Below are positions 4,055 through 5,612 of a stretch of 8,443 nt of DNA, piece by piece. The notes under the pieces were generated by a model. The model made no database searches. It was not told the origin of the DNA and was given only the letters and a program-made list of their open reading frames with translations. Both the position numbers and the translations under genes were made by a program. This DNA is from a virus (lineage: Duplodnaviria; Heunggongvirae; Uroviricota; Caudoviricetes), in the IMG/VR virus record IMGVR_UViG_2663763282_000007. One strand, written 5' to 3'. How positions within the stretch are numbered: the stretch's first letter is position 1; every line of letters begins with the position of its first letter.

Positions 4055-5612
4055 TCTTTCACATATTATCGCTGCGGCATTCAATGAGCCGCTGCTTCTG
4101 GAGCCCGCCTATGCGCGGGTTTTCTTTTGCGCGCTCGGGCGTGAGATGGGCGCAGCAAGCCTTTCGGTACCGCAACAGCAGGTACAGCTTGACGCTCCCG
4201 GGATGCTGGCTGAAACGGACGAGTACATGGCCGGAGGCAAACGACCTGCCCGTGTTTACCGGGTGGTGAACGGTATTGCTGTACTGCCGGTGACCGGCAC
4301 GCTGGTACACCGGCTGGGTGGCATGCGGCCATTTTCCGGAATGACTGGCTATGACGGCATTGTCGCCTGTCTTCAGCAGGCAATGGCGGACACTCAGGTA
4401 CGGGGCGTACTGCTGGACATTGACAGTTCTGGCGGGCAGGCCACCGGCGCGTTTGACTGCGCTGACATGATTTACCGTCTCCGGCAGCTGAAGCCTGTCT
4501 GGGCACTGTGCAATGACACGGCCTGTTCAGCCGCCATGTTACTGGCATCGGCCTGCTCCCGACGGCTGGTTACCCAGACATCCCGTATCGGCTCCATTGG
4601 GGTGATGATGGGCCATGTCAGCTATGCCGGTCATCTGGCACAGGCCGGTGTGGATATCACGCTGATTTACGCCGGATCGCACAAGGTGGATGGCAATCAG
4701 TTTGAATCCCTGCCAGCAAAGGTTCGCCAGGACATGCAGCAGCGCATTGATGCGGCGCGCCGGATGTTTGCTGAAAAAGTGGCGATGTATACCGGTTTAT
4801 CTGTGGATGCGGTTATGGGAACAGAGGCCGCCGTTTTTGAAGGTCAGTCCGGTATTGAGGCCGAACTGGCGGATGAATTAATCAATGCGTCGGACGCCAT
4901 CAGCGTGATGGCTGCGACGCTGAACACACACGATACAGGAGGCACTATGCCGCAATTAACTGCAACGGAGGCTGCCGCGCAGGAGAACCAGCGAGTGATG
5001 GGGATCCTGACGTGTCAGGAAGCGAAAGGACGTGAACAACTGGCCACGATGCTGGCAGGGCAACAGGGTATGAGCGTTGAGCAGGCCCGGGCGATTCTGG
5101 CCGTGGCGGCACCGCAACAATCTGGTGTATCTGCGCAGAGTGAAGCCGATCGCATTATGGCATGTGAAGAGGCGAAAGGACGTGAACAACTGGCGGCAAC
5201 GCTGGCGGCGATGCCGGAGATGACGGTGGAAAAAGCCCGTCCGATTCTGGCTGCTTCACCGCAGGCGAATGCCGGACCCTCACTTCGTGATCAGATTATG
5301 GCCCTGGATGAGGCAAAAGGGGCAGAGGCGCAGGCTGAAAAACTGGCGGCCTGTCCGGGGATGACCGTGGAGAATGCCCGGGCTGTACTGGCGGCAGCCT
5401 CAGGCAGGGCAGAACCGGTTTCTGNNNNNNNNNNNNNNNNNNNNNNNNNNNNNNNNNNNNNNNNNNNNNNNNNNNNNNNNNNNNNNNNNNNNNNNNNNNN
5501 NNNNNNNNNNNNNNNNNNNNNNNNNNNNNNNNNNNNNNNNNNNNNNNNNNNNNNNNNNNNNNNNNNNNNNNNNNNNNNNNNNNNACGTCAGCAGACGGTG
5601 ATGCGGACGTGA
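4044..5612 (+). CDS. C: Prohead protease / scaffold (lambda gpC-like, S49/SppA-type); 3' end undefined because of the N gap
   Basis: A GTG start at 4044 gives (M)RRNLSHIIAAAFNEPLLLEPAYARVFFCAL..., which matches the lambda gpC N-terminus (...LRNLPHIASMAFNEPLMLEPAYARVFFCAL). Conserved blocks follow: MTGYDGI, GAFDCADMI, KPVWAL.ND, SAA.LLASA.SRRLVTQT.R.GSIGVMM, ITLIYAGSHKVDGN, TEAAV. The ORF track reads through 160 N to a stop at 5610-5612; the true frame and stop after the gap are unknown (in-frame stops exist at 5596-5598, 5610-5612 and 5633-5635 in the three frames). Confidence 0.85.
   Translation: MRRNLSHIIAAAFNEPLLLEPAYARVFFCALGREMGAASLSVPQQQVQLDAPGMLAETDEYMAGGKRPARVYRVVNGIAVLPVTGTLVHRLGGMRPFSGMTGYDGIVACLQQAMADTQVRGVLLDIDSSGGQATGAFDCADMIYRLRQLKPVWALCNDTACSAAMLLASACSRRLVTQTSRIGSIGVMMGHVSYAGHLAQAGVDITLIYAGSHKVDGNQFESLPAKVRQDMQQRIDAARRMFAEKVAMYTGLSVDAVMGTEAAVFEGQSGIEAELADELINASDAISVMAATLNTHDTGGTMPQLTATEAAAQENQRVMGILTCQEAKGREQLATMLAGQQGMSVEQARAILAVAAPQQSGVSAQSEADRIMACEEAKGREQLAATLAAMPEMTVEKARPILAASPQANAGPSLRDQIMALDEAKGAEAQAEKLAACPGMTVENARAVLAAASGRAEPVSXXXXXXXXXXXXXXXXXXXXXXXXXXXXXXXXXXXXXXXXXXXXXXXXXXXXXXRQQTVMRT
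4947..5612 (+). CDS. Nu3: Scaffolding protein (lambda Nu3-like), nested in-frame within the 3' third of C; 3' end undefined
   Basis: An in-frame internal ATG at 4947 is preceded by AGGAGG (4937-4942). The product begins MPQLTATEAAAQENQRVMGIL, matching the region where lambda Nu3 starts inside C (…ENSRIMGILNCEEAHGRE…). The nested arrangement is assumed by analogy with lambda. Confidence 0.5.
   Translation: MPQLTATEAAAQENQRVMGILTCQEAKGREQLATMLAGQQGMSVEQARAILAVAAPQQSGVSAQSEADRIMACEEAKGREQLAATLAAMPEMTVEKARPILAASPQANAGPSLRDQIMALDEAKGAEAQAEKLAACPGMTVENARAVLAAASGRAEPVSXXXXXXXXXXXXXXXXXXXXXXXXXXXXXXXXXXXXXXXXXXXXXXXXXXXXXXRQQTVMRT
5013..5424 (+). repeat. Imperfect tandem direct repeat, about 150-bp period, 2.8 visible copies, within the C/Nu3 coding region; the last copy is truncated by the N gap
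   Basis: Copy starts are at about 5013, 5163 and 5307. A 23-nt exact match, gcgaaaggacgtgaacaactggc, occurs at 5022-5044 and 5172-5194. The encoded modules are CQEAKGREQLATMLAGQQGMSVEQARAILA..., CEEAKGREQLAATLAAMPEMTVEKARPILA... and DEAKGAEAQAEKLAACPGMTVENARAVLA.... Confidence 0.8.
5425..5584. other. Run of 160 N (assembly gap or masked sequence)
   Basis: Uninterrupted n characters from 5425 to 5584. The length is not a multiple of 3, so the reading frame across it is arbitrary. Confidence 0.99.

Follow-up and report, generated by a model that had tools for sequence, protein, structure and literature searches.

Three tandem modules in a nested protease/scaffold gene pair correspond to the annotated Tri boxes of phage 21

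In phage lambda, the scaffold of the prohead is the protein Nu3, the sequence of which is common to the C terminus of the protease C, and which self-associates and interacts with both C and E, the Nu3-E interaction having been detected by the two-hybrid approach (PMC3224144). A second gene pair of this type is described for phage 21 in GenBank record M81255.1 ("Bacteriophage 21 head gene operon"), namely gene 5, encoding 501 amino acids (aa), and the nested gene 6, a Nu3 homologue of 200 aa, in which three repeat_region features are named "Tri1 box", "Tri box" and "Tri3 box". This record is presumably the one that accompanied the work of Smith and Feiss in Gene in 1993. The stretch of DNA analysed here, hereafter the window, comprises 8,443 nucleotides (nt) of the IMG/VR virus record IMGVR_UViG_2663763282_000007 (Caudoviricetes), and the element in question is a series of tandem modules at positions 4983-5423, flagged in a first-pass annotation made from the sequence alone. 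With a probability of roughly 85%, this segment is taken to be the Tri box region of the nested protease/scaffold gene pair (gene 5/gene 6, i.e., homologues of lambda C/Nu3) of a phage-21-like lambdoid prophage, where the modules would make the scaffold trivalent along the lines proposed below.

Correspondence to the Tri boxes of phage 21

The Tri features occupy 5542-5645, 5682-5792 and 5823-5936 in the M81255 record and, once carried to the window by alignment, fall at ~5014-5117, ~5154-5264 and ~5295-5408, that is, essentially on the interval originally flagged. As such, the positional match makes the finding a rediscovery of an annotated feature, and no claim to novelty can be upheld. By megablast, the region is matched by phage 21 and its relatives, with 89.5% identity to phage 21 and 97.7% to a prophage of Escherichia coli O121; the nucleotide identity between window and phage 21 is ~89.5% over 4700-5424 and ~92% over 3199-5424. 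At a query coverage of at least 80%, matches to the region occur in 1865 out of 5426 complete E. coli genomes, roughly one in three. The triplication is already known, being a long-annotated and normal feature of phage-21-like prophages in E. coli and Shigella, neither an artefact nor a new expansion. The first-pass annotation had considered that an expanded repeat could alter prohead assembly, an idea that finds no support since three copies are the wild-type state in the viable phage 21 as well as in the E. coli genomes just counted, and are both ancient and maintained by purifying selection. A literature search for functional work on the Tri boxes yielded nothing relevant among the papers that could be reached.

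The likeness to gene 5/6 of phage 21 extends to the gene order, the nested in-frame start with its ribosome-binding site, the three modules at the same positions, and the product lengths of 501 and 200 aa. Differences amount to a few amino acid changes in the window, e.g., K versus N in module 2, while a frameshift in the portal gene, a run of N and an exact identity of 23 nt between copies 1 and 2 belong to the window. Respective to lambda C (439 aa) and Nu3 (131 aa), the overall identity is 57% at the amino acid level and the common elements are (i) the S49 protease domain, (ii) an in-frame nested scaffold starting at an aligned GGxM, (iii) a related C-terminal tail, and (iv) the same conserved module, ENSRIMGILNCEEAHGREEQARVLAETPGMTVKTARRILAAAPQS. 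Lambda, however, has one module where the window has three, and about 36 additional linker residues between protease and module. Since module 1 of the window is the best match to the lambda module (score 127, z=22) and since the N-terminal extension ENxR(V/I)MGIL is found in module 1 and the lambda module only, the additional modules are 2 and 3.

The translation of 4044-5424 gives the protease domain followed by the tandem modules ENQRVMGILTCQEAKGREQLATMLAGQQGMSVEQARAILAVAAPQQSGVSAQS, EADRIMACEEAKGREQLAATLAAMPEMTVEKARPILAASPQANAGPS and LRDQIMALDEAKGAEAQAEKLAACPGMTVENARAVLAAASGRAEPVS, in which the motif EAKG(R/A)E..A..LA..PGMTVE.AR.(I/V)LA occurs three times, with module starts spaced by 150 nt and then by 141-153 nt. 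Local BLOSUM62 scores between modules range from 86 to 107, against 24-26 +/- 5 for shuffled sequences (z = 12.8-17.7), and in none of 2000 shuffles was the observed score reached; the tandem module of about 50 aa, three times present in the C/Nu3 scaffold region, is thereby borne out, with lengths of 53, 47 and 47 aa. At the DNA level, the identity between modules is 72-78% over extended matches and 58-72% over the 99-nt cores, and Tandem Repeats Finder, applied to the whole window, returned 0 rows because the copies are too diverged. The identity of 58-78% and the blank result therefore define a diverged repeat at the protein level rather than a DNA tandem repeat; while the tandem-repeat check proposed beforehand gave nothing with this program, the alignment of the proteins against shuffles confirmed the repeat. 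The two outcomes that could have dismissed it, i.e., a single copy multiplied by assembly and a similarity limited to 23 nt, were both decided in favour of a real modular repeat. A DNA tandem repeat prone to collapse had also been envisaged; it was ruled out by the 0 rows, the core identity and the longest exact match of 23 nt.

Copy number and history of the module

The protein search with the 200-aa scaffold gave mostly fragments at contig ends, and the survey of copy number was thus based on contig loci instead, where a hidden Markov model (HMM) of the three window modules and that of lambda was run on the C open reading frames (ORFs) of 162 loci from genome and viral contigs. One copy was found at 70 loci, which span many gammaproteobacterial genera and include lambda as well as Enterobacter, Kluyvera, Klebsiella, Citrobacter, Serratia, Vibrio, Photobacterium, Pseudomonas, Marinobacter and others. 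Three copies were found at 83 loci, from E. coli, Shigella, E. albertii, Trabulsiella guamensis, Providencia alcalifaciens and IMG/VR contigs 64-67% identical; among those with three full copies are phage 21 and the loci of two complete genomes, L005 and L006. Two copies characterise four loci, namely L010 (Buttiauxella ferragutiae), L147, L141 and L144, the latter two each having part of a third copy besides two full ones, and four copies a single locus, L164, as well as the protein P0024. As such, the comparison of module number among homologues, which had been advised at the outset, revealed 1 to 4 copies in related scaffolds, and the statement that lambda carries a single module proved correct both with the HMM and by comparison with lambda C itself. 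In the alignment, P0021 and L147 exhibit an in-register fusion of copy 1 to copy 2 (GMSVEQ joined to ARPILAAS), and P0019 and P0015 lack copy 2, again in register.

Copies 1 from different lineages are 62-76% identical to one another, whereas within the same protein copy 1 is 41-53% identical to copies 2 and 3; copies 2 and 3 likewise pair best with their positional counterparts in the identity matrix. Judged from these comparisons, the three copies are positional orthologues in E. coli, E. albertii, Trabulsiella, Providencia and divergent IMG/VR viral contigs, stemming from one shared ancient triplication. Between copies, synonymous sites are saturated, with a synonymous divergence (dS) of at least 1 or too saturated to be estimated, which together with the positional orthology shows the triplication to be old. 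Between window and phage 21, modules 1-3 have a ratio of non-synonymous to synonymous divergence (omega) of 0.11, 0.15 and 0.06, respectively, and the protease domain one of 0.13. The triplication thus predates the dissemination of the phage 21 head module through the enterobacteria, and each copy is kept individually by purifying selection. In L164, copies 2-4 are mutually 77-82% identical, which indicates an extra duplication of more recent date.

Within the survey, a C of lambda type, with the length and the module score of phage lambda, was encountered at L015, L017-L024, L039, L041, L042 and L052, on short contigs, several with a coverage near 1, from assemblies of Neobacillus, Kitasatospora, Chromatium, Shewanella, Akkermansia, Leeuwenhoekiella, Enterococcus and other unrelated organisms. 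These most likely represent contamination by lambda control DNA.

Competing explanations of the repeat

The copies might have been created or miscounted by the assembler, with the gap marking a collapsed repeat, as could be argued from the run of N directly after copy 3 and from the many partial homologues in databases, the contig ends of which cluster at C residues ~327-395, inside modules 1-2, so that breaks within this gene are indeed frequent in draft assemblies. Yet, two complete chromosomes, E. coli ECMA0423 (CP178302.1) and Shigella flexneri SFBU1023 (CP182556.1), i.e., the loci L005 and L006, are 100% identical to 1544-5424 and 99.96% identical to 5585-8132 of the window and exhibit exactly three copies, then, in place of the N run, 74 nt of unique, non-repeated sequence encoding ASTTAMFEHFMANHSPAAVQGGVPQ; the copy number of three is therefore confirmed. 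Phage 21 itself was sequenced independently twice, in a Sanger-era and a modern record, with three copies both times. The copies have no more than 23 exact nt in common, at an identity too low for Tandem Repeats Finder, the gap lies outside the repeats, and breaks in draft contigs are at least equally explained by co-resident lambdoid prophages, found at up to 5 places per genome. An assembly artefact can thus be considered practically negligible, and repeat collapse, which the first-pass annotation had invoked as the cause of the gap, is contradicted by copies that are intact and by a gap located downstream of copy 3, in unique sequence. The N run is a scaffolding gap unrelated to the repeats; the further candidate of a fourth copy or a collapsed repeat concealed in it was ruled out by the same 74 nt in the two identical genomes.

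An action of the repeat at the level of nucleic acids, be it as protein-binding sites, antisense CII-dependent promoters or RNA structure, would turn the protein repeat into a by-product. Phage 21 record OL657228 does annotate two antisense "CII binding sites" (TTGYN6TTGY) in gene 6, one of them within module 2, and the window has the same two matches on the minus strand, at 4952-4965 and 5186-5199; this pattern nonetheless occurs at chance frequency, with 2 observed against 1.63 expected and 93 of 200 shuffles reaching at least 2, and the annotated sites were rejected as meaningful on that ground. The exact repeat GCGAAAGGACGTGAACAACTGGC, found at 5022 and 5172 as the first-pass annotation had reported and the longest within 4900-5424, stands out as a high identity against the saturation of synonymous sites in the rest of the region. 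In phage 21 and E. albertii, though, copy 1 reads GCG AAA GGA CGT GAA CAG CTT GCC and copy 2 GCG AAC GGT CGT GAA CAA CTG GCG, whereas both copies of the window read GCG AAA GGA CGT GAA CAA CTG GC; the match is specific to the lineage of the window and absent from the other two, with differences at four codon third positions, and no conserved synonymous-site nucleotides were seen in that codon comparison. It is not a conserved nucleotide element, and its pattern suggests a short intragenic gene conversion between copies 1 and 2 in the lineage of the window. Furthermore, it is the amino acids that are conserved and not the nucleotides (omega of ~0.1, saturated dS between copies), and neither inverted repeats, terminators nor promoter-like sites were found within the modules, leaving a nucleic-acid role extremely improbable. 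Less remote, if still unlikely, is a functionally neutral origin, where the extra copies are a tolerated expansion of a disordered scaffold linker and only copy 1, the lambda orthologue, works. The natural variants with two and four copies, the in-register deletions, the sufficiency of one copy in lambda and the reported disorder of lambda Nu3 would fit such filler. On the other side, copies 2 and 3 are kept as positional orthologues in lineages just 60-70% identical overall, their omega values of 0.15 and 0.06 are as low as that of the protease domain, and the deletion variants derive for the most part from prophage fragments that are incomplete or may be defective; possible as it is, filler appears disfavoured by the positional orthology and the low omega.

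The gene pair, its predicted structure and a proposed mechanism

The window is a lambda-type block of head genes, i.e., terminase large subunit, small head-tail connector, portal, S49 peptidase, decoration, major capsid, and FI- and FII-like genes, and the protease-scaffold gene lies between the portal and the decoration and major capsid genes, as seen in the ORF map and in the annotated genes of phage 21 and of the E. coli prophage with 97.7% identity (Table 1). Its product matches Pfam Peptidase_S49 (PF01343) over residues 147-292 (E=2.7e-33, 115.6 bits for a cut-off of 24.9) and PHROG 53 "head maturation protease" (E=8e-198 for the gene starting at 4044), as well as the NCBIfam SppA_dom (E=5e-28), the latter scoring below the equivalog cut-off, as would be anticipated of a paralogue from a phage. 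The serine of a CSA motif, which is invariant in the lineage of the window, phage 21 and lambda, is the presumable catalytic residue. For the nested gene, the predicted start aligns with the annotated start of gene 6 and with GGRM of lambda; the scaffolding protein is annotated in both phage 21 records (M81255, OL657228), separate gene calls exist for proteins of 199-200 aa beginning with MPQLTAT (P0002, P0004 and P0006), and PHROG 8399 "head scaffolding protein", which has the length of lambda Nu3, matches the scaffold in three stretches.

Table 1. Features of the protease/scaffold locus and of the genes downstream, in window coordinates
Feature	Position	Strand	Remarks
Head maturation protease/scaffold gene (lambda C / phage 21 gene 5 homologue)	4044..5635	+	GTG start at 4044; interrupted by N run; true stop 5633-5635; ~92% nt identity to phage 21 gene 5
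Shine-Dalgarno AGGAGG of nested in-frame scaffold gene	4937..4942	+	Read in sequence; homologous position is the annotated gene 6 ribosome-binding site in M81255 and OL657228
Nested scaffold gene (lambda Nu3 / phage 21 gene 6 homologue)	4947..5635	+	Predicted ATG at 4947, in frame with C; 200 aa with gap filled
Module 1 (Tri1), 53 aa	4983..5141	+	Conserved core 5004-5102; orthologue of the single lambda module
23-nt exact repeat, copy A	5022..5044	+	In module 1; encodes AKGREQLA
Module 2 (Tri2), 47 aa	5142..5282	+	Core 5154-5252
23-nt exact repeat, copy B	5172..5194	+	In module 2
Module 3 (Tri3), 47 aa	5283..5423	+	Core 5295-5393
N run, 160 nt	5425..5584	.	Stands in for 74 nt of unique coding sequence
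Conserved C-terminal tail of C/Nu3, TSADGDADVKMLMAMP*	5585..5635	+	True-frame translation; protein alignment
Decoration protein gene	5672-6019
Major capsid protein gene	6077-7105

The stretch between the flanking matches amounts to 74 nt in phage 21 and the O121 prophage, as in every other homologue, against 160 N in the window; the run thus exceeds the true sequence by 86 nt, which is not a multiple of three, and the listed ORF of 522 aa (4044-5612) therefore ends in the wrong frame. This ORF is a frame artefact and the size of the N run is arbitrary. In the true frame after the gap, the sequence continues to the stop at 5633-5635 with TSADGDADVKMLMAMP*, giving a C of 501 aa, as for gene 5 of phage 21 and as found complete in L005 and L006, and a scaffold of 200 aa. 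Of the length estimate in the first-pass annotation, a C longer than the 439 aa of lambda stands but the figure of over 520 codons does not, for it had counted the excess of N and the shifted frame. Several database versions of scaffold relatives are frameshifted as well (P0056, P0020, P0044 and P0048), P0056 exactly after AEPVS, the residue where the gap of the window begins, and P0020 with the ending RRQQTVMRT, i.e., the wrong-frame tail of the artefactual ORF; another relative, P0069, is fused to tail-fibre-like sequence.

Searches of Pfam, NCBIfam and PDB sequences with the module or the scaffold returned no family and no solved relative, and fold searches of the PDB generic helical matches only. 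An AlphaFold2 model of scaffold residues 1-159, based on 23 aligned homologues, has a mean predicted local distance difference test score (pLDDT) of 76.8 and consists of three similar helical units, each with a pLDDT of ~81-85, in which the chain passes from a short helix through a turn at EAKG into a second helix and then, after the PGMT loop, into a third. The linkers are of low confidence and the predicted template modelling score is 0.33, so that no fixed arrangement of the units is predicted; a model of a single module is weaker (pLDDT of 66). In general terms only, short helical units on flexible segments in a transient internal scaffold are reminiscent of the C-terminal helix-turn-helix of P22 gp8 and of phi29 gp7, which differ in having one coat-binding domain per chain and no fusion to a protease; no relationship to scaffolds of the P22 gp8 or phi29 gp7 type was detectable in sequence or fold searches.

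In the proposed mechanism, a single module of lambda type would have been duplicated twice in tandem in the ancestor of the phage 21 head-gene lineage, the three copies subsequently diverging while purifying selection retained each of them. As the module belongs to the part that the long product, a protease with a scaffold tail, has in common with the shorter, scaffold-only product, both would carry three copies. According to the model, each copy may form a small unit of helices, tethered by a flexible linker and folding either independently or on binding. Inside the prohead, the modules would mediate contacts of the scaffold, namely scaffold-scaffold and/or scaffold-capsid protein, and would also bring in the protease, which carries them too; three copies would make the scaffold trivalent, when that of lambda is monovalent. 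Occasionally, the copy number may shift by in-register recombination between copies, variants with two and four copies being extant.

Some points weigh against this reading of the modules as binding units. All that M81255 has to say about their function is the remark attached to each Tri feature, "function unknown; putative". Lambda Nu3 is reportedly intrinsically disordered in solution, and the helices of the module may form only on binding. Lastly, with its portal gene frameshifted, this particular prophage may no longer be using its modules. A bolder proposal is that the three orthologous modules divide the labour between major capsid protein, portal or protease, and scaffold self-association, the copy number from 1 to 4 acting as an adjustable valency in co-evolution with the capsid protein; such a scheme seems doubtful at present.

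The portal gene is split into the overlapping ORFs 2461-3516 and 3431-4054 (overlap 3431-3516), and, relative to phage 21 and E. albertii, a run of T at ~3449-3454 is one base longer (CACCTTTTTTCC, where these two read CACC-TTTTCCC). Both complete genomes, CP178302.1 and CP182556.1, exhibit this frameshift too; with such a portal gene, the prophage is probably defective. As for the closest RefSeq E. coli prophage, in E. coli O121 (CP119441.1, L002), it is strongly rearranged, as noted at 1-1333 and 8009-8706 of its locus, with copies of IS1 flanking and interrupting the head genes, partial portal and head-tail joining genes, and a second, partial capsid/decoration block upstream.

As a discovery, the repeat is of small value, the annotation of the Tri boxes in phage 21 dating back to the early 1990s and their presence extending to such a large share of complete E. 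coli genomes. For annotation, the consequence is that C is here a protein of 501 aa with a nested scaffold of 200 aa. For the biology of lambda-type scaffolds, an ancient triplication under purifying selection, along with natural variants of one, two, three and four copies, offers a simple genetic handle. Should the modules indeed divide their labour and set a valency, phage 21 versus lambda would constitute a natural test system for how scaffold valency affects prohead nucleation and protease loading.

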